From positions 1 through 25,802 of IMG/VR virus record IMGVR_UViG_3300001460_000174: 25,802 bases of DNA; one strand, 5' to 3'. Of this stretch, positions 4,286 through 15,024 are shown piece after piece. The DNA comes from a virus (Duplodnaviria; Caudoviricetes). Under the pieces are notes generated by a model. The model did not search any database. It was not told the DNA's origin and was given only the letters and a program-made list of their open reading frames with translations. Position 1 is the first letter of the stretch. Each line of letters starts with the position of its first letter. The translations under genes and the position numbers were made by a program.

Positions 4286-4798
4286 ATGATATATTGGTTT
4301 ACGGGTCAACCCTGTTCAGGAAAGACCGTTTTAGCAAACATGCTTAAAGAAAAATATCTCCCTCATGCCTACCGCATAGATGGAGATGAAATGAGAGAAT
4401 TATTTACAAATAAAGATTATTCTATAAAAGGTAGAATAACTAATGTAGATGCTGCTCAAAAAATTGCTCATTATTTACACAACCAAGGTAAAGATGTAAT
4501 CGTATCTTTAGTTTCTCCTTATTTAGATCAAAGAGAAGAATTTAAGGATATAATGAAGTGGCAATTACATGAAATTTTTGTACATTATGATGTAGAAAAA
4601 GGATTTAGAGGTAGAGAAAATTACCATGTTATGCAGTTCCAAAAACCAGACTTAGATTATATTAATATTGACACTACAAATCAAACACCAGAAGAATCAT
4701 TAAAGATAATAGCCAAAAAGACTGGTTTAGATGTAGTATATCCTAAAGGATCATTATTAAATGAATTACCACCTTCGGATTATCAATTAGATAACTAA
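4286..4798 (+). CDS. cysC: Adenylyl-sulfate (APS) kinase-like protein
   Basis: WFTGQPCSGKT P-loop, IDGDEMR, VSLVSPY..R, EIFV. The usual RDPKGLY lid motif is diverged. Confidence 0.8.
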   Translation: MIYWFTGQPCSGKTVLANMLKEKYLPHAYRIDGDEMRELFTNKDYSIKGRITNVDAAQKIAHYLHNQGKDVIVSLVSPYLDQREEFKDIMKWQLHEIFVHYDVEKGFRGRENYHVMQFQKPDLDYINIDTTNQTPEESLKIIAKKTGLDVVYPKGSLLNELPPSDYQLDN

Positions 4799-4799
4799 T

Positions 4800-5138
4800 A
4801 TGGAGAAAAAAAATACATACTTTTGTGATATAGATGGTACTATATTTAAATATCGCAAATTTGAAACATACGAAACTACAAAAGCTGAAGGAATAGAATC
4901 TACTATAGATTACCTAGATAAAGCATCAGTTGAAGGACATATGATAATTTTAACTACAGCACGCCCTGAATACCTTAGGATGCATACTGAAATAGAATTA
5001 TATGAAAATGAAGTACCATATCATAGATTAATTATGGGGATTGAAAGAGGACCTAGATATTTAATTAATGATATGGACCCAAATAAACCAGAAAAAAGAG
5101 CAATAGCAATAAACTTAATAAGAGATAATGGAATTTAA
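4800..5138 (+). CDS. Small capless HAD-superfamily phosphatase
   Basis: FCDIDGT (motif I DxD), LTTAR (motif II), INDMD (motif IV). Confidence 0.8.
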   Translation: MEKKNTYFCDIDGTIFKYRKFETYETTKAEGIESTIDYLDKASVEGHMIILTTARPEYLRMHTEIELYENEVPYHRLIMGIERGPRYLINDMDPNKPEKRAIAINLIRDNGI

Positions 5139-5526
5139 AGCAAAAGCAGACAAAGAGTCTTCATCATCAGAAGTAAAGTATTCATTTTTTGCTGGTAGAT
5201 GGCAACCTTTACATAAAGGGCATTTATGGTTAATTAATGAAAGATTAAAACAAGGATATAATGTTTGGTTAGGAATTAGAGATGTAAAACCGGATAAAAA
5301 GAATCCTTGGACAGCACAACAAATTTTAGAAATGGTAAAAGAAGGTGAGTTAAAAGAACTTATTAAAGAAGGTAAAGTATTACCAACTATTATACCTGAT
5401 ATAGAATCGATTAATTATGGTAGAGGAGTTGGATATGATATTATTGAACACGTTCCACCATCTGAAATAGGAGAAATATCAGCTACTTCTATAAGAAAAC
5501 AAATGAAAAAAGATGGTAAGTTATAA
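5128..5526 (+). CDS. Cytidylyltransferase-like (HIGH-motif) nucleotidyltransferase
   Basis: FAGRWQPLHKGH (HxGH) and C-terminal ISATSIR, which are NadM/Sat-like superfamily motifs. Confidence 0.8.
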   Translation: MEFKAKADKESSSSEVKYSFFAGRWQPLHKGHLWLINERLKQGYNVWLGIRDVKPDKKNPWTAQQILEMVKEGELKELIKEGKVLPTIIPDIESINYGRGVGYDIIEHVPPSEIGEISATSIRKQMKKDGKL

Positions 5527-5731
5527 AAGACACATTGCAAAAACAGTTTCATGGCGAATAATAGGATCAATAGATACAGTAGTAATTTCAGGACTAATAA
5601 CGGGTTCTTGGGAAGCAGGTTTGGCTATAGGGGGAATAGAAATCATTTCCAAAATGGTGCTATACTTCCTACACGAAAGACTTTGGTATAAATTTAGTAA
5701 ATTTGGGTTAAATGACAAAACAAAAACCTAA
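5513..5731 (+). CDS. DUF2061-like small membrane protein
   Basis: RHIAKTVSWRIIG..DT..ITG....A..IGG.E...K..LYFLHERLW pattern with two hydrophobic segments. Confidence 0.75.
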   Translation: MVSYKRHIAKTVSWRIIGSIDTVVISGLITGSWEAGLAIGGIEIISKMVLYFLHERLWYKFSKFGLNDKTKT

Positions 5732-8700
5732 AATTTTTGCACATGGTAGTTACATTGGTACTACTGGTTATGCTAATCACACAAGAGCTTTTTATAGAGA
5801 ATTATCTAACATATATAATTTAAAAGTTAGAAATTTTACTATAGGAGGTTCTTGGGAAGGACATAATGATGAGCCCCATAATGGAGAAGATTATATAGAT
5901 AATTTAGATAAAAAATTATTAGTTGAACAATCTTTATGGGATAATGATGATAAATTAAATCACCACTCATTTTATTCTAATTATCCTAATAATTTTAATC
6001 ACAATATTAATATAGTTCTTAATGAAACAAACCATCATTTCTTTTACCAAGACTACCAGGGTCCTAAAATAGCATATAATGTATGGGAAACTACAAGACA
6101 ACCAGATTATTTTTTTGACCAATTAAAAACATTTGACCAAATTTGGGTTCCTTCTCAATGGCAAAAAGATTGTACTGTAGAACAAGGTATAGAAGAAAAT
6201 AAAGTAAAAGTTGTCCCAGAGGCAGTTGATGGTAATATATTTAAACCTAATAATAAAGTAACTTTACCTGATTATGATGATGGTAGATTTAAATTTGTTA
6301 TATTTGGTAGATGGGATTATAGAAAATCAACTAAAGAATTAATAGAATCTTTTTTAGAAGAATTTGACAAAGATGAACCCGTTGACTTAATAGTATCTAT
6401 TGATAATCCTTATGCTAAAGATAAATTTAAATCTACAGAAAAAAGATTAAAACATTATAAGTTAAATGACCCTAGAGTAAAAGTAAAACACTTTCCTACT
6501 AGAAAAGAATATATAAAATTTTTACAGAAAGGTCATGTATTTTTATCTTGTGCTAGATCTGAAGGTTGGAATTTACCTTTAATTGAAGCAATGGCTTGTG
6601 GTACACCTTCTATATATTCAAATTGTAGTGCACAATTAGAATTTGCTGAGGGACTAGGATTGCCAGTAAGTATTTTATCTACATCTAAAGCTAAAAAAGG
6701 GGAATATAGTAGTTTTTCTCAAGAAATGTTAGAAGGGGAATTTTATGATCCTGATTTTAATAATCTAAAAGAAGTGATGAGAGATGCTTATGAAAATTAC
6801 GAATATCATAAAGAACAATCTATAATAGAGTCTAAAATAATTAGAAAAAAGTTTACTTGGGAAAATGCTGCTAAAATAGCAGGTAAAGAATTAGAAAATT
6901 TATTAAAAAATATCCCACAAAATAAAGTAGAAATAAGTTTTAATTTAGGTCCTAAAGTAGAAGTCCTTGGACACCATAATAACAAATATACAGTTGAATT
7001 TATAAATGGTTCTACTAATGAAATAGTTCATGTAGCTACTATTACTAATAATATGTGGACTCATTGTAGTAAAACATATAATATACCTTGGATAATTAAA
7101 ATTAATGGTGAAGTAGTACATACTTTTAATTTAGAAAATAAAACAGTAAAAATTTCATTTGAATCAAAATCAATAGGAGATACATTAGCTTGGGCCCCAC
7201 AAGTGATAGAATTTAAAAATAAATATAAATGTAATGTTATAGTTAGTACATTTCATAATGAATGGTTTAAAAATCTAAAAGATTATAATGATATCAAATT
7301 TGTACCCCCAGGAGAAACTCCTCCATGTTACGCTCATTTTCAAATTGGTTGGTTTAGAGATGAAAAAGGAGGTTGGAAAAACTTAAATGATCATCCAACC
7401 CAAGTAAACACAATACCATTAATCCAGGCTGCTGCTGATATTTTAAATATTCCTTATAATCCTGTTAACTATGGAATTGATTATAAAATAGGAAAAAGAC
7501 CATTAAAACAAAAATATGTTTGTATTGGACCCCAAGCCACAGCAGGACTAAAAGAATGGCAATATGAAAGTTGGATTAAATTAGCTGATTCTCTAACTAA
7601 AAAGGGTTATAAAGTTATTAGTTTAACACTTAATGGGTTTAAAGGTAAAAATATTATTAATAAGAAAAATTTACCTTGGGATAAATTATTTAATTATATT
7701 CATCATGCAGATTTATTTGTAGGATTAGGTTCAGGATTATCTTGGGTTAATTGGGCTATGGGAAAACATACTTTAATGGTTAATAATTTTGTTCCTTATG
7801 GGTATGATGTGCCTAATAATTTAACTAAAGTAGAAAACCATTCTGTGTGTAATAATTGTTGGGTTAATAAAGATTATATTTTTGATACAGGAGATTGGGA
7901 TTGGTGCCCAGAACATAAGGGAACAAATAAACAACATATTTGTCAAAAATCTTTAACACCAGAAGTTGTAATTAACAAAGCATTAAATTTATTAGATAAT
8001 AAAAATAAAAAAAAATCTTTTATATGGATAACAGGAGGTAATGAAAGTTATCTTCCTATGATAGAAGTTTTAGCTAAAAGTTTACTTAAATATTCAAAAC
8101 ATAAAATTATAGTTTATGGGTTTAATTGTGATTCTAAAATAAATCTTCCTAATGTTATTAATAAAAGAATAGATTATCGTCCAAAACCAAAATCGGAATC
8201 AATTGGAGAACCAAATTTATTTAATAAAGATTACTCAATATTTTTTGCTAAGTATTTAGCTAGTTTAGATTCACTAAAAGAAAATTATGATAATTTTGCT
8301 TGGATTGATGGAGATGCTTTTGCAACAGAAAATATTGATAATTCTTTACAATATCTAGAAAATTTAAAAGATTATCCTTTATTTATGAAATACTTCCACG
8401 AAGATATTAATCAGTGGAGGTATTATAATAATATTAAATTAGAAGGAAATTATGGTAGCGAGTTAGCTTCAATTAAAAATATAACTAGAAATCCAAATAA
8501 AAAATTAATTGCTACTGGTTTTTATTTTTATAATAAAGAAAGTAAACCATTTTTTGATAAATGTTTAAAATGGAATAAAGAATTAAATTTATACAATATT
8601 AAAATTTATGTAGATGATAATGCATTTTCAGAAGAAAGGGTAGCTAACAATATACTTTGGGAAGAAAATAAGACATTAGATTTACCCATTACATGGAATA

Positions 8701-9440
8701 ATTATTATAGTTCAGAGGATGAAATAAAAGTTAATTTACCTTATTTAAAACAAGGTTTTGATGTAATGTATGATACTAATACTTTAGAACCTTACTTTAT
8801 ACATGGTCCTGATCCTTCAGTAACTCCTAAAGGTGCAGATATTTTAAATAAAACTTTTAATGATTATAAATCATCTAAATTAATGATTATTGCTCATCCT
8901 GATGATGAATTAATATTTGGAGGAGAAGAATTAATAAAACATGGTTCTGATTATAAAGTAATTTGTCTTACAAATAAATCAAATAAAATTAGAAGTGAAG
9001 AATTTAAACAAGTAATGGAAAAATTAAATGTAGGTTCTTGGAAAATGTTCGACTATGAAGATACTTTATACCCTACAAAACAATTTGATTTAAAAAATAT
9101 AATTAATTATAAAAATTGGGATAAAATAGTAACTCATAACCCTATTGGTGAATATGGACACCCTCAACACAAATTAATTTTTGATGCTGTTAAAAATGAG
9201 ACTGATGATTTTTATGTATTTGGTAAATCTTCACAAAAAATATCCAAAACATATTTGGAGACTAAAAAATTATTACTTAAATTATATGAATCAGAACAAT
9301 CTATTATAAATCAAATCTTAAATAAAAAAGGTGATTGGTTTAAAGGTAACTCGGATACAAACTATATTGAGTACGAATCAATAACTAAATACAATAAATT
9401 AAAAGACATATCAACTTATATAGCATGTTATGAAAAATAA
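5712..9440 (+). CDS. Multidomain glycosyltransferase: GT4 + AAH/TibC-like (GT9-fold) heptosyltransferase + DxD GT-A-like domain + PIG-L/LmbE deacetylase
   Basis: GT4: TGYANH, WETT, GRWDYRKS, RSEGWNLPLIEAMACG (aa ~1-395). AAH-like: SIGDTLAW, FVGLGSGLSW, CNNCW...WDWCP...HICQK (aa ~400-762). Third domain: WIDGD (aa ~770-1055). Deacetylase: IAHPDDE, THNPIGEYGHPQH (aa ~1057-1242). Confidence 0.8.
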   Translation: MTKQKPKIFAHGSYIGTTGYANHTRAFYRELSNIYNLKVRNFTIGGSWEGHNDEPHNGEDYIDNLDKKLLVEQSLWDNDDKLNHHSFYSNYPNNFNHNINIVLNETNHHFFYQDYQGPKIAYNVWETTRQPDYFFDQLKTFDQIWVPSQWQKDCTVEQGIEENKVKVVPEAVDGNIFKPNNKVTLPDYDDGRFKFVIFGRWDYRKSTKELIESFLEEFDKDEPVDLIVSIDNPYAKDKFKSTEKRLKHYKLNDPRVKVKHFPTRKEYIKFLQKGHVFLSCARSEGWNLPLIEAMACGTPSIYSNCSAQLEFAEGLGLPVSILSTSKAKKGEYSSFSQEMLEGEFYDPDFNNLKEVMRDAYENYEYHKEQSIIESKIIRKKFTWENAAKIAGKELENLLKNIPQNKVEISFNLGPKVEVLGHHNNKYTVEFINGSTNEIVHVATITNNMWTHCSKTYNIPWIIKINGEVVHTFNLENKTVKISFESKSIGDTLAWAPQVIEFKNKYKCNVIVSTFHNEWFKNLKDYNDIKFVPPGETPPCYAHFQIGWFRDEKGGWKNLNDHPTQVNTIPLIQAAADILNIPYNPVNYGIDYKIGKRPLKQKYVCIGPQATAGLKEWQYESWIKLADSLTKKGYKVISLTLNGFKGKNIINKKNLPWDKLFNYIHHADLFVGLGSGLSWVNWAMGKHTLMVNNFVPYGYDVPNNLTKVENHSVCNNCWVNKDYIFDTGDWDWCPEHKGTNKQHICQKSLTPEVVINKALNLLDNKNKKKSFIWITGGNESYLPMIEVLAKSLLKYSKHKIIVYGFNCDSKINLPNVINKRIDYRPKPKSESIGEPNLFNKDYSIFFAKYLASLDSLKENYDNFAWIDGDAFATENIDNSLQYLENLKDYPLFMKYFHEDINQWRYYNNIKLEGNYGSELASIKNITRNPNKKLIATGFYFYNKESKPFFDKCLKWNKELNLYNIKIYVDDNAFSEERVANNILWEENKTLDLPITWNNYYSSEDEIKVNLPYLKQGFDVMYDTNTLEPYFIHGPDPSVTPKGADILNKTFNDYKSSKLMIIAHPDDELIFGGEELIKHGSDYKVICLTNKSNKIRSEEFKQVMEKLNVGSWKMFDYEDTLYPTKQFDLKNIINYKNWDKIVTHNPIGEYGHPQHKLIFDAVKNETDDFYVFGKSSQKISKTYLETKKLLLKLYESEQSIINQILNKKGDWFKGNSDTNYIEYESITKYNKLKDISTYIACYEK

Positions 9441-10347
9441 AAATTTAATAGTAATTTTATGTTATTGTGATACACAAGAAAAATTAGATATATTACAAAG
9501 TACTATTTCTATTTTAAAAAATAACTTTAATATCCTAATTTCATCCCATTCACCACTCCCAACCTCAATCCAGTCTCAAATTGATTATTTTGTATATGAT
9601 CAAAGTAACCCAATTTTACGTTTTCCAGAAAGAGGAATGAAATTTTGGAAAACAGTAGGGGGCCAAATAAAAATTTCTCATATTAAAGAAGATTATGGTT
9701 GGACAGTTTTTAATTTAATTAAAAATGCTATTTCACTAAATAATAATTTAGATTATCCATTTTGTTCTTTTATTAATTATGATACTAAAATTACTAACGA
9801 AATATTAGAATTACTTAATGATCCCAAAGATTTTATTTGTAGTAATTATATAGACCCAGCAACTAACCAACCTTTATTTCCTGGGTTATTATTAAATATT
9901 TTAAGTAAAGATAATATTATCAAAGTTGATTCTTTACTTAGTAAGTCAGATTATGTAAAACAAATTCCTAATACCCAAACTTCAATGTATAATGATGCTG
10001 AAAGTTATTGGGAAAGTATTTTAGAAAATTTTAAATATAAAAAAACAGAAGTAAAAGTAAAGGGTACTTTAGAATGTGGGTCTCCTGATGTTTTAAATTA
10101 TAATAAATATAATACAAATTTTAAATTATTTTTTTCAGTTAGTAATAAACAATTATTAATTTATGATAATTTTAATAATCTTAATATTAAAATCAATGTA
10201 AATGGAGAAAATATAATATTAAAACAAATTAATGAAGTAATAAATTTGCCTGATATAAAATATTTAGGTATATTTATTGATTCAAAGTTAGTAGATATTA
10301 CTAATATTTATACTAAAGACAAATTAAACAAAATAGAAAATTTATAA
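9430..10347 (+). CDS. Hypothetical protein, possibly glycosyltransferase-like
   Basis: Overlaps the preceding gene. ILISSHSP...DYFVYD..N and INYD motifs suggest a GT-A-like fold. Very AT-rich. Confidence 0.5.
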   Translation: MKNKNLIVILCYCDTQEKLDILQSTISILKNNFNILISSHSPLPTSIQSQIDYFVYDQSNPILRFPERGMKFWKTVGGQIKISHIKEDYGWTVFNLIKNAISLNNNLDYPFCSFINYDTKITNEILELLNDPKDFICSNYIDPATNQPLFPGLLLNILSKDNIIKVDSLLSKSDYVKQIPNTQTSMYNDAESYWESILENFKYKKTEVKVKGTLECGSPDVLNYNKYNTNFKLFFSVSNKQLLIYDNFNNLNIKINVNGENIILKQINEVINLPDIKYLGIFIDSKLVDITNIYTKDKLNKIENL

Positions 10348-11391: not shown

Positions 11392-13758
11392 ATGGCAGAA
11401 ACATTATTATCTCCAGGTGTATTAGCTAGAGAAAACGACCAATCATTTATTACTCAACAGCCCGCAGAAGTAGGTGCCGCTATTATCGGACCAGCTGCAA
11501 TAGGTCCTGTTGAAGTTCCAACATTAGTTACTTCTTTTAGCCAATATTCAGCAATTTTTGGTACTACTGTACAAAGTGGTTCAATTGCTTATTCATATTT
11601 AACTGCATTAGCTGCAAATAATTATTTTCAAAGTGGTGGGAATAGCTTATTAGTTACTAGAGTAGTACCCGAAACATTCTCTTCTGCTACAAGTTCATTT
11701 GTAGACTCAGTAGATGGTGAACCTTTATTAACGGGTGATACAAACGCAGCAGCATTATTTGCTAATGGGGTATCTGCAGGATCAGCTTTTACAGGATCAG
11801 CAGAAACTGTAACTTATACAGCAGCTACTTATTCTGCAACAGGAGGAGGTTCTGGAGCAGTATTTAATTTAGTAACAGATAATGGAGCAGAAGCTGCAGT
11901 AACAGCATCTTCAGCAGGAACAGGATATAAAGTAGGAGATGTAATTACATTTTCTTCAAACGATAACGGTGGTTCGCCATTAATTTCAACTACAATTTTT
12001 GATGCTGTTTCAACAAACACATTTAATACAAATACAGGTGATGATTCATTAGATGGAACTTATACCTTTACTAGTGGTAGCACTGCTGCTACAGATTTAA
12101 TAGTAGGTGGTGGAGGAACTGCAACAGGAGTATCTGTTGACGTAACTATTTTAAATGGAGTAATTACTAATGTAGTCCCAAGTTCTGTCGGAGAAGGATC
12201 AATAGTAGATACAACATTATCTTTATCACTTGATGCTATTAATGCTCAAACTGGAGACGCAGGCGGAACAGGTGTCCTTGTTTTAACACTTACAGCAGAT
12301 GAATTAAGTGCAGGAACTTTTACAATAACTTTAGACACAGATAATCTAGAAGCATCAGCCCCATCATTTGAGTTAGAAACAATTTCTGAAGGGGAAATAA
12401 TGAACACTGGAACAAGCCAATTATCAAACGGAGCTTTAGTATCAGGTTCAACACAAAATGTACGTTGGTCAGTAGCTAGTGTAAATACAGGATCTGGAAC
12501 ATTTAGTTTACTAATTAGAAGAGGAAATGATAATACTAATCAACAAGTAGTATTAGAACAATATTTAGATGTATCACTAGATCCATATCAACCAAACTAT
12601 ATTGGAGCACAAATTGGTGATATTAAGAAAAATTTAGTAAATGATGGAGCAGATTATTATATCCAAGAATCAGGTTCATATGCTAACTTATCAAGCTATG
12701 TAAGAGTTAAATCAGTAAGAAAAACTCCAAATTATTTTGATAATAATGGAGCAGCAAAAGATAACTTTACAGGTAGCCTACCAGCTGTATCATCAGGTTC
12801 ATTTGGAGGTGCTGTAGGTAGAAATATTACAACAGCAGCTTCTTCAAGATTAGCTAATTTTTACGGAGATATAGGTAATGGTGCTGCATTTGATACACAA
12901 GGATTAACTGGTAGTAATTATGATAACGCAATTGCCTTATTAGGAAATGTAGATGAATACCAATATAATGTTATTAGTGCTCCTGGATTAATTAACGCAG
13001 TACACGCAACTCAAACAACAGCTTTAGTTAATAATTCATTAAATAGAGGTGATAATGTTGCAGTAGTAGACCTAGTAAAATATGGAAGTTCAGTAGCTTC
13101 AGTAACACAAGCAGCTTCTTCATTTGATAATAGTTATGCTGCTACATATTGGCCATGGGTTCAAATGATTGATCCACAAACTGGAGAATTAGTATTTGTA
13201 CCAGCTTCAACAGTAATCCCAGGAGTATATGTCTTTACAGATGCTTCAAGTGAACCATGGTTTGCACCAGCTGGATTAACTAGAGGAGCTTTAGGACAAG
13301 TAGTTAGAGCTGAAAGAAGATTAACAGCAAATAATAGAGATACTTTATATGAAGCAAATGTTAATCCATTAGCTACATTCCCACAAAGTGGAGTAGTTGT
13401 ATTTGGACAAAAAACACTACAGAAAAGAGCTAGTGCTTTAGATAGAGTAAATGTACGTAGATTATTAATTGCTCTTAAAGGATTTATTTCTGGAGTAGCT
13501 GATAATCTAGTATTTGAACAAAATACAATCGCTACAAGAAATAATTTCTTAAGTGTTGTTAATCCATATTTAGAAGGAGTACAACAAAGACAAGGATTGT
13601 ATGCATTTAAAGTAGTAATGGATGATACTAATAATACACCAACTGTAATAGATAGAAACGAATTAGTAGGACAAATTTTCTTACAACCAACTAAAACAGC
13701 TGAATTTGTAATATTAGATTTCAATGTATTACCAACTGGAGCAACATTTCCAGCATAA
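11392..13758 (+). CDS. Contractile tail sheath protein (T4 gp18-like)
   Basis: LSPGVLAREND at the N-terminus, then YWPWVQ, PWFAPAGLTRG, RDTLYEANVNP, GQKTLQ..SALDRVNVRRLL, FEQNT, NNTP.VID and AEFVILDF. Confidence 0.95.
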   Translation: MAETLLSPGVLARENDQSFITQQPAEVGAAIIGPAAIGPVEVPTLVTSFSQYSAIFGTTVQSGSIAYSYLTALAANNYFQSGGNSLLVTRVVPETFSSATSSFVDSVDGEPLLTGDTNAAALFANGVSAGSAFTGSAETVTYTAATYSATGGGSGAVFNLVTDNGAEAAVTASSAGTGYKVGDVITFSSNDNGGSPLISTTIFDAVSTNTFNTNTGDDSLDGTYTFTSGSTAATDLIVGGGGTATGVSVDVTILNGVITNVVPSSVGEGSIVDTTLSLSLDAINAQTGDAGGTGVLVLTLTADELSAGTFTITLDTDNLEASAPSFELETISEGEIMNTGTSQLSNGALVSGSTQNVRWSVASVNTGSGTFSLLIRRGNDNTNQQVVLEQYLDVSLDPYQPNYIGAQIGDIKKNLVNDGADYYIQESGSYANLSSYVRVKSVRKTPNYFDNNGAAKDNFTGSLPAVSSGSFGGAVGRNITTAASSRLANFYGDIGNGAAFDTQGLTGSNYDNAIALLGNVDEYQYNVISAPGLINAVHATQTTALVNNSLNRGDNVAVVDLVKYGSSVASVTQAASSFDNSYAATYWPWVQMIDPQTGELVFVPASTVIPGVYVFTDASSEPWFAPAGLTRGALGQVVRAERRLTANNRDTLYEANVNPLATFPQSGVVVFGQKTLQKRASALDRVNVRRLLIALKGFISGVADNLVFEQNTIATRNNFLSVVNPYLEGVQQRQGLYAFKVVMDDTNNTPTVIDRNELVGQIFLQPTKTAEFVILDFNVLPTGATFPA

Positions 13759-14289: not shown

Positions 14290-14318
14290 AAATTTTACCC
14301 ACCCCTGATTGAAAAATT

Positions 14319-14344
14319 GCTTGGCTTAGGCCAAGCTTTTTTTT
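14319..14344 (+). terminator. Rho-independent terminator after the tail tube gene
   Basis: GCTTGGC-TTAG-GCCAAGC perfect stem followed by 8 T. Confidence 0.85.
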
Positions 14345-14355
14345 ATCTTAATTAT

Positions 14356-15024
14356 ATGGTGCAAGACTATCCTAATTTTTTATCTTTAGAAGAAATAAAA
14401 ATTATCAAAAATAGTATTTATGAACTAAAAGAATATTGGAAACATATTTCCCAATATGAAAATAGTCATGCCCAAATATATAAAGGTACCCCAGCAGAAG
14501 AAGCTATTATGGAACAGTGCAAAGCCGAATATACTTTAGGTGATGCTATATATAAATTAGAAGGAAAAAAAGAAAACATAGATATAGGAGTTCAATTATT
14601 ATTAGTTGAAAAATTTTATTGGTTATATAAAAAGTTAATTAATAAAATAGAATTAATAACTTCCATACCTACGGAATTAGAAGACGAATTAACGGTTCCA
14701 GGATTTCATGTATTTACAGGTTCTTCACAACCTTTAAAAACATATGATTATCATTTAGATCTTAATATTTTAGATTTTTACCCCAAATTAGATGTAGATC
14801 AAATTTATTCATTTGTATCTTTAATTGAATCTAATGGTACTATACCTTATTTAGATTATAAAACTGGTACTAAAAATTATGAATTTGGCACTTTGCATAT
14901 TTGGAAAGGAGATATACCCCACAGAATAGGACAATTAGAGTTAAAACAAAATGATTCTAGAATTACATTTCAGGGTCATTATTATTATAATCCTGTTACA
15001 AATTCTAATAAATTATTTTTCTAA
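14356..15024 (+). CDS. 2OG-Fe(II) oxygenase-like protein (start revised from the TTG at 14317 to the ATG at 14356)
   Basis: PGFHVF, YHLD (HxD), IPHRIG (distal His), RITFQGH (2OG-binding Arg). The longer start lies within the terminator hairpin. Confidence 0.75.
   Translation: MVQDYPNFLSLEEIKIIKNSIYELKEYWKHISQYENSHAQIYKGTPAEEAIMEQCKAEYTLGDAIYKLEGKKENIDIGVQLLLVEKFYWLYKKLINKIELITSIPTELEDELTVPGFHVFTGSSQPLKTYDYHLDLNILDFYPKLDVDQIYSFVSLIESNGTIPYLDYKTGTKNYEFGTLHIWKGDIPHRIGQLELKQNDSRITFQGHYYYNPVTNSNKLFF

Follow-up and report, generated by a model that had tools for sequence, protein, structure and literature searches.

Established ATP sulfurylases are of two kinds, Sat and CysDN, and the phage locus described here raises the question of whether there is a third. 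The window, by which we mean the whole 25,802-nt stretch of DNA analysed, is by family annotation a 25.8-kb contig from a T4-like tailed phage, with genes for PhoH, a head-tail adaptor, tail sheath and tube, baseplate proteins and a lysozyme-bearing protein. An earlier note on this DNA had proposed that four of its genes form a minimal PAPS module. The ORF listing and Pfam bore out the four genes on the + strand, given here with the gene that follows them:

4286..4798, + strand: short-lid APS-kinase-family protein, 170 aa (PF01583, E 7.7e-17)
4800..5138, + strand: small HAD phosphatase, 112 aa, accessory (HAD_PNKP, E 5e-4, under cut-off)
5128..5526, + strand: minimal NadM-like HIGH-fold nucleotidyltransferase, 132 aa (CTP_transf_like, E 7.8e-6)
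5513..5731, + strand: DUF2061 small predicted membrane protein, 72 aa (PF09834, E 1e-21)
5712..9440, + strand: neighbour outside the core, 1242 aa, GT4 + Aah/TibC-like heptosyltransferase + PIG-L deacetylase (TIGR04414, 185 bits; cut-off 200)

As the note had also remarked, cysD/cysN and sat are lacking: none of the 24 window ORFs scanned matched a Sat or CysD/CysN family, an absence that refers to a fragment, the source record being the 25.8-kb contig alone. Consecutive genes among the four are separated by a 1-nt gap (kinase/HAD) or overlap by 11 nt (HAD/nucleotidyltransferase) and 14 nt (nucleotidyltransferase/DUF2061). Such tight packing is not special, abutting or overlapping genes being common across the window; the DUF2061 and glycosyltransferase genes overlap equally closely, by 20 nt, so packing by itself does not define the module. 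The slot between the neck genes and the large glycosyltransferase is variable, and the module is an optional insert: of 80 close relatives retrieved through PhoH, just 8 encode the nucleotidyltransferase at a distance of up to 6 kb.

The HKGH and ISATSIR motifs pointed out in the note are both present in the 132-aa protein, and in the alignment of its family HxGH and S[AG]TxxR are invariant. The protein has HxxH and SGTxxR-type motifs on a HIGH fold, as Sat does (PF01747; the A. vinosum Sat of sat-aprMBA; T. thermophilus 1v47), and its family shares with Sat the partners APS kinase and AprMBA. The suggestion that it is a stripped-down Sat was nevertheless not supported. Sequence, profile and fold comparisons all gave NadM/NMNAT as the nearest relatives (family profile against a NadM, E 3e-11; against a Sat, E 0.11), and this kinship, with the lack of the QXRN and GRD motifs, speaks against a trimmed Sat. 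The QXRN (RNP) loop, described as binding the sulfate of APS (PMC3779200), is absent from the family, which has GR[WYF]QP at that place; the GRD loop is likewise absent, with GR-x-VGY instead and no Asp or His, although that stretch resembles the GRDHAGVG..Y of Sat (a lead only). Sat's GxxKxxD mobile loop and three-domain architecture are not seen either, the protein being a single domain with IRD....NP in that region, and Pfam and NCBIfam gave no match to a PAPS_reduct-type CysD or a GTPase CysN.

If function followed kinship, the protein would be an NMN/NaMN adenylyltransferase for phage NAD supply and its neighbourhood incidental. Archaeal NMNAT/NadM (TIGR01527, NF002243; 1f9a, 1ej2, 2qjt, 2qjo) is the nearest fold and shares with the family GR.QP.H.GH, NP[FW]T, D-I-E and S[GA]T..R (GRFQP.H.GH in the fuller form of the first motif), and two JGI records bear the NMNAT/NadM name. 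We consider this very improbable, as the curated scores fall far short (NF002243, 36.8 against a cut-off of 127; TIGR01527, 27.6 against 181) and the stretch from the DIE motif to the last strand is about 25 residues shorter than in 1f9a, whose residues 76 to 110 align to family profile positions 78 to 87. The NadM segment after D-I-E, which holds the nicotinamide-stacking Trp helix, is lost, so the 132-aa protein is probably not an NAD enzyme. The Gly-Ser that NadM keeps after strand 2 is Arg-Asp in the family. NadM has Nudix or NAD-gene partners, not APS kinases or sulfotransferases, whereas the 52 family representatives scanned included no Nudix fusion; NadD was already present in all five carrier genomes tested, and one single-chromosome carrier (G021) encodes both NadD and NadM elsewhere in its genome.

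For the 170-aa kinase, the best PDB matches are APS kinases. It scores under all curated NCBIfam cut-offs; its top match, PRK05541 (60.4 bits), is nearly tied with TIGR00455 (59.6 against a cut-off of 138.7 bits). The P-loop, DGD, conserved Arg/Asn and S-P motif of CysC are all there, and compared with full-lid kinases it retains G7, G12, K13, D32-G33-D34, R37, R50, N53, R83, R108 and P121; R37, R50, N53, R83 and the positions aligned to them presumably have APS-binding roles in APS kinases. The CysC lid, RDPKGLY...FTG, has lost about 19 residues and kept just the Arg (R108). The note was thus right that RDPKGLY is missing, but its argument that the substrate may therefore differ from APS is not strong, because some partner kinases of the family have the full lid and score over the curated APS-kinase cut-off. 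As the same nucleotidyltransferase pairs with kinases of both sorts, the short lid looks like streamlining, and the kinase is predicted to convert APS and ATP to PAPS.

Our preferred reading, to which we assign a probability of about 0.7, is that the 132-aa protein represents a third and minimal kind of ATP sulfurylase, which would supply the short-lid kinase with APS for PAPS synthesis. It would turn ATP and sulfate into APS and PPi, with ATP placed at HKGH and SATxIR and with the family-specific R51 and R99, together with R24 and Q26, binding sulfate in place of NMN; as the family has neither the QXRN nor the GRD motif of Sat, we can only infer that it binds sulfate. That first step is unfavourable, and the kinase would drive it by using up APS to make PAPS. 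A sulfotransferase, encoded elsewhere on the phage genome or by the host, would then transfer the sulfate, likely to a phage-made glycan or glycoprotein, and the HAD protein may optionally clean up by removing PAP or PPi. The same family may work with AprMBA in SAR11, plausibly in the ATP-forming direction. The sulfurylase reading draws on fusions to APS kinases and to a sulfotransferase, on viral and cellular neighbours, on the pattern of missing Sat and CysD and on the linkage to apr in SAR11. The note's central proposal, APS from the nucleotidyltransferase and PAPS from the kinase, is thus well supported by fusions, neighbours and phyletic pattern, the activity being predicted, while the Sat ancestry and the place of the HAD in the core are given up.

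The family is large, with 3,759 proteins at E <=1e-3 in a near-length search, 849 clusters at 50% identity (E <=1e-10) and an estimated 1,500 or so matching stretches in the GTDB collection. Neighbourhoods within 6 kb were examined for 80 viral loci, the best of 494 matches, redundant loci all being counted. Here a kinase was found in 75 of the 80 loci and was directly adjacent in 44. PHROG 10255 covers both kinase and nucleotidyltransferase, and the two are fused in a single ORF in the Xylella phages Salvo and Bacata and in Stenotrophomonas phage DLP_6. Salvo gp32 and its relatives (L081:7575-8321) are fusions of this kind in 55-kb phages. In five loci (L013, L016, L048, L051, L296) the module lies between queC and a carbamoyltransferase gene, near queD/queE/folE-like genes.

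Sulfotransferases, counted as Pfam-confirmed proteins plus BLAST relatives with seeds taken from carrier loci, occurred within 6 kb in 20 of the 80 viral loci (744 kb); 72 control loci around PhoH, lacking the nucleotidyltransferase gene and spanning mostly structural genes (732 kb), had none. An unseeded scan for sulfotransferase motifs gave 17/80 and 0/72, respectively. Among 48 whole contigs selected by length (33 as carriers, which are longer on average, and 15 as PhoH controls), two sulfotransferase families were found in 15 of 36 carriers (11 over the cut-off) and in none of 12 non-carriers; the sole PhoH-chosen contig with a sulfotransferase also carries the nucleotidyltransferase gene, about 0.7 kb away. 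In one viral ORF (L021) a Sulfotransfer_4 domain is joined to the nucleotidyltransferase, and a sibling of our locus (L267) has two sulfotransferases directly 5' of its own copies of the four genes and the glycosyltransferase. Neither the window itself, nor a near-identical 35-kb record (G841), nor a 119-kb sibling (G845) yielded a sulfotransferase, and none is annotated within 8 kb of the Salvo and Bacata fusions. Pfam likewise detected none in three of six near-complete carrier phages (G856, G869, G871); two of these three have a motif-only candidate inside the module.

Five ORFs of 184-202 aa, inside or beside the module, have PRTGST, LxR and YED motifs (L288:6721-7272, L284:6734-7330, L009:3897-4481, L044:4686-5291, L279:4963-5559). 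They resemble a divergent sulfotransferase family and have no Pfam, PHROG or PDB-sequence match.

Cellular loci were taken from the best 80 of at least 546 confirmed GTDB matches (26 of 64 collection parts scanned), and the carriers include Marinimicrobia, Omnitrophota, Planctomycetota, Acidobacteriota, CPR bacteria, archaea and SAR11. In the 47 loci outside SAR11, a few of which may be phage contigs binned into MAGs, the kinase was fused to the nucleotidyltransferase in 26, separate in 18 and absent in two, with one ORF not called; the full RD.KG.Y lid is seen in 27 of the 47, and a sulfotransferase lies within 6 kb in 26. All three partner kinases tested pass TIGR00455 (203, 150 and 258 bits; cut-off 138.7). 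Among the best 150 profile matches, 29 of the 35 representatives of at least 233 aa contain an APS-kinase domain, in both domain orders; the other six have methyltransferase, DUF6717 or unassigned domains, and no sugar-kinase or Nudix domain was seen in any of the 35. Three proteins (P0170, P0205, P0219) join a Cys-rich, endonuclease-like N-terminal region to the nucleotidyltransferase. In a sibling contig, at L263 / L175 (G867 84614-84959), the gene is split into two frames, through a frameshift or an assembly error, and a sulfotransferase lies about 40 kb away.

Neither Sat nor CysD was found in 39 of 50 carrier genomes, most of them incomplete. Counting against the sulfurylase reading, beside the lack of a sulfotransferase in the window, the other 11 do have one of them: Sat in four, and a CysD-like protein of at least 185 bits in nine (two over the cut-off). 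The clear case of coexistence is L103, where cysD and cysN adjoin a kinase-nucleotidyltransferase fusion. This coexistence, the missing sulfate-binding motifs of Sat and the same set of neighbours could also be accounted for if the 132-aa protein handled APS in some other way, for example as an APS:phosphate adenylyltransferase, by hydrolysing APS, or by binding it as a non-catalytic partner of the kinase. We think such roles improbable: HxGH and S[AG]TxxR, through which this fold binds ATP/PPi, are invariant, and in G021, where no Sat or CysD was found, the sole APS kinase adjoins the nucleotidyltransferase gene and could not be supplied with APS by a hydrolase or a binder.

The sulfurylase reading bears on SAR11 in particular, where AprBA and cysC are present and sat and cysDN are reported lacking (PMC5069961). 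In that source Smith et al. describe P. ubique as without sat and cysDNCHIJ, and their Table 3 gives cysC and aprA in apparently equal numbers of strains; the passages on these genes in a 2025 study treat aprAB as core and the pathways as incomplete (PMC12636525). Across 201 genomes of the order, we found the nucleotidyltransferase gene in 162, AprA in 166 and Sat in seven, five of which also have the gene. The gene is close to core in SAR11 and follows AprA in its distribution. Gene and AprA occurred together in 152 genomes, the gene alone in 10, AprA alone in 14 and neither in 25, the last against 6.8 expected (Fisher p 2e-14, phylogeny not corrected for); without one unpublished genome (G715) the table reads 151/10/14/25. 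Seven genomes, selected because the coordinates looked adjacent, were inspected at apr. In five the gene stands directly upstream of aprM-aprB-aprA, co-oriented and with no adjoining kinase; in the other two, kinase and nucleotidyltransferase genes are convergent on the apr operon. We named aprM by position (literature source, PMC2211403). In Allochromatium vinosum, sat is described immediately upstream of aprMBA (PMC3779200). The 33 SAR11 loci in the best-80 GTDB set had no sulfotransferase within 6 kb, and their scanned neighbours are unrelated catabolic genes. A 132-aa HIT protein is encoded at the SAR11 apr/xsc locus (L164:3142-3537, L174:4192-4587), directly upstream of aprM in G657, and is a rival candidate for consuming or discharging APS.

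Another SAR11 locus bears on the possibility that the pair activates a group other than sulfate, the nucleotidyltransferase making NMP-X and the short-lid kinase phosphorylating its 3'-OH. In the Campylobacter phosphoramidate pathway, a CysC-like kinase phosphorylates the 3'-OH of NMP-X. In G050 a PRK05541-type kinase (L171:6410-7539) adjoins a gamma-glutamyl-CDP-amidate hydrolase-like gene, a phosphoramidate-type locus which indicates that CysC-like kinases serve other routes too; the near tie with PRK05541, the shortened lid and the Salvo and Bacata fusions, with no annotated sulfotransferase nearby, point the same way. We still regard this explanation as unlikely, since the family is fused to full-lid kinases passing the APS-kinase cut-off and, in L021, to a sulfotransferase, a kinase-less gene stands upstream of aprMBA, and phosphoramidate genes do not recur among the scanned neighbours.

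The DxDGT and TTAR motifs are conserved in homologues of the 112-aa HAD, and viral loci with such a homologue have the kinase in 35 of 36 cases and the nucleotidyltransferase in 35 of 36, both misses being at contig ends. The converse does not hold: the HAD is present in 24 of the 80 viral nucleotidyltransferase loci (best 80 of 494 matches) and in none of the 80 cellular loci (best 80 of at least 546 GTDB matches). It travels almost solely inside the module, which often does without it, and so it is an accessory, not part of the minimal PAPS core in which the note had placed it. The PAP phosphatase CysQ is an inositol-monophosphatase-family protein, while the 112-aa protein matched HAD families only in Pfam and NCBIfam; a CysQ-like role is possible. 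Both PAP and pyrophosphate would fit as its substrate, PAP being slightly preferred because of a weak likeness to the PNKP 3'-phosphatase domain. DUF2061 is a frequent companion, found in 59 of the 80 viral loci (best 80 of 494 matches), and is fused to the nucleotidyltransferase in two of the 52 representatives scanned.

As an alternative, the note had considered that HAD and nucleotidyltransferase act like GmhB/HldE and supply NDP-heptose or another NDP-sugar to the adjoining Aah/TibC-like transferase. HldE/HldC with GmhB does likewise combine a HIGH-fold nucleotidyltransferase and a HAD beside a heptosyltransferase-like gene, and a PHROG labelled phosphoheptose isomerase matches our HAD. 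GmhB has a Cys/His zinc-site loop; no such Cys/His cluster was found in 13 HAD homologues, and the only GmhB-family score was a 13-bit HAD-IIIA match. The module also differs in having no PfkB kinase and no obligate link to the transferase: an Aah-like gene occurs in 10 of the 80 viral nucleotidyltransferase loci (best 80 of 494), and 13 sibling loci have it with neither kinase nor nucleotidyltransferase in the upstream slot. HAD and Aah-like genes are both absent from the 47 cellular loci outside SAR11, and heptose-synthesis genes from the window. Where HldC/HldE have (F/L)XXGXSTT, the heptose nucleotidyltransferase (HENase) motif (PMC11461863), the family has IS[AG]T. Two siblings instead encode, directly 3' of the Aah-like transferase, a separate cassette of an HldC-like nucleotidyltransferase (ending STT), a 116-aa HAD about 30% alike to the 112-aa one, and a probable RfaE-I-type sugar kinase (L211:7552-8766, L223:11358-12581), a candidate for phage heptose activation. 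Despite the likeness of the two HADs, the missing STT motif, the 13 loci without a module and these separate cassettes leave the heptose alternative highly improbable. The 1242-aa neighbour, which siblings carry whole, split or shortened, has an unassigned domain at about aa 760-1050.

The closest known counterparts of the proposed two-step system are bifunctional PAPS synthases and the Sat-CysC and CysN-CysC fusions (human PAPSS1, 1x6v; Aquifex, 2gks), which likewise join an APS kinase and a nucleotidyltransferase in either order and make PAPS, the product predicted for the phage-family fusions. Here, in contrast, the nucleotidyltransferase half is a NadM-like domain of 110-130 aa, and most of the lid is missing from many of the viral and SAR11 kinases. 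Phage-borne APS-kinase genes are also known as cysC auxiliary genes in aquatic viruses; the passages on cysC in COBRA (PMC10914622) and in Kieft et al. (bioRxiv 2021.01.05.425418) place them in assimilatory sulfate reduction and mention no phage-encoded source of APS next to cysC, whereas the context here points to PAPS for sulfation with an APS source of its own. In main texts, chiefly of the open-access literature, we found no description of the nucleotidyltransferase family as a sulfurylase. The pathway and the fold are already known; the enzyme class would be new.

On balance we favour the broader view that the family would be a widespread third class of ATP sulfurylases, some 115-130 residues long, with an origin in NadM that is separate from those of Sat and CysDN. 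With it, aquatic phages and streamlined cells would have a PAPS synthase of two genes with which to sulfate products of their own; in SAR11 it would be the sulfurylase reported missing, turning AprMBA-derived APS into ATP during organosulfur breakdown. If so, pathway calls would change in many genomes, where the family is now annotated just as 'cytidyltransferase-like'; orphan phage cysC genes would be halves of PAPS synthases and not assimilatory sulfate-reduction genes; and the gap in SAR11, with AprBA and cysC but sat and cysDN reported lacking (PMC5069961), would be filled.

Three other ORFs in the window deserve mention. Two gave no Pfam family at E 0.1: a 305-aa ORF 3' of the glycosyltransferase (9430-10347) and a 235-aa ORF between the tail tube and baseplate genes (14317-15024). 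The third encodes the 788-aa tail sheath (11392-13758), which has a long Thr/Gly/Ser-rich insertion and may be a target of glycosylation.
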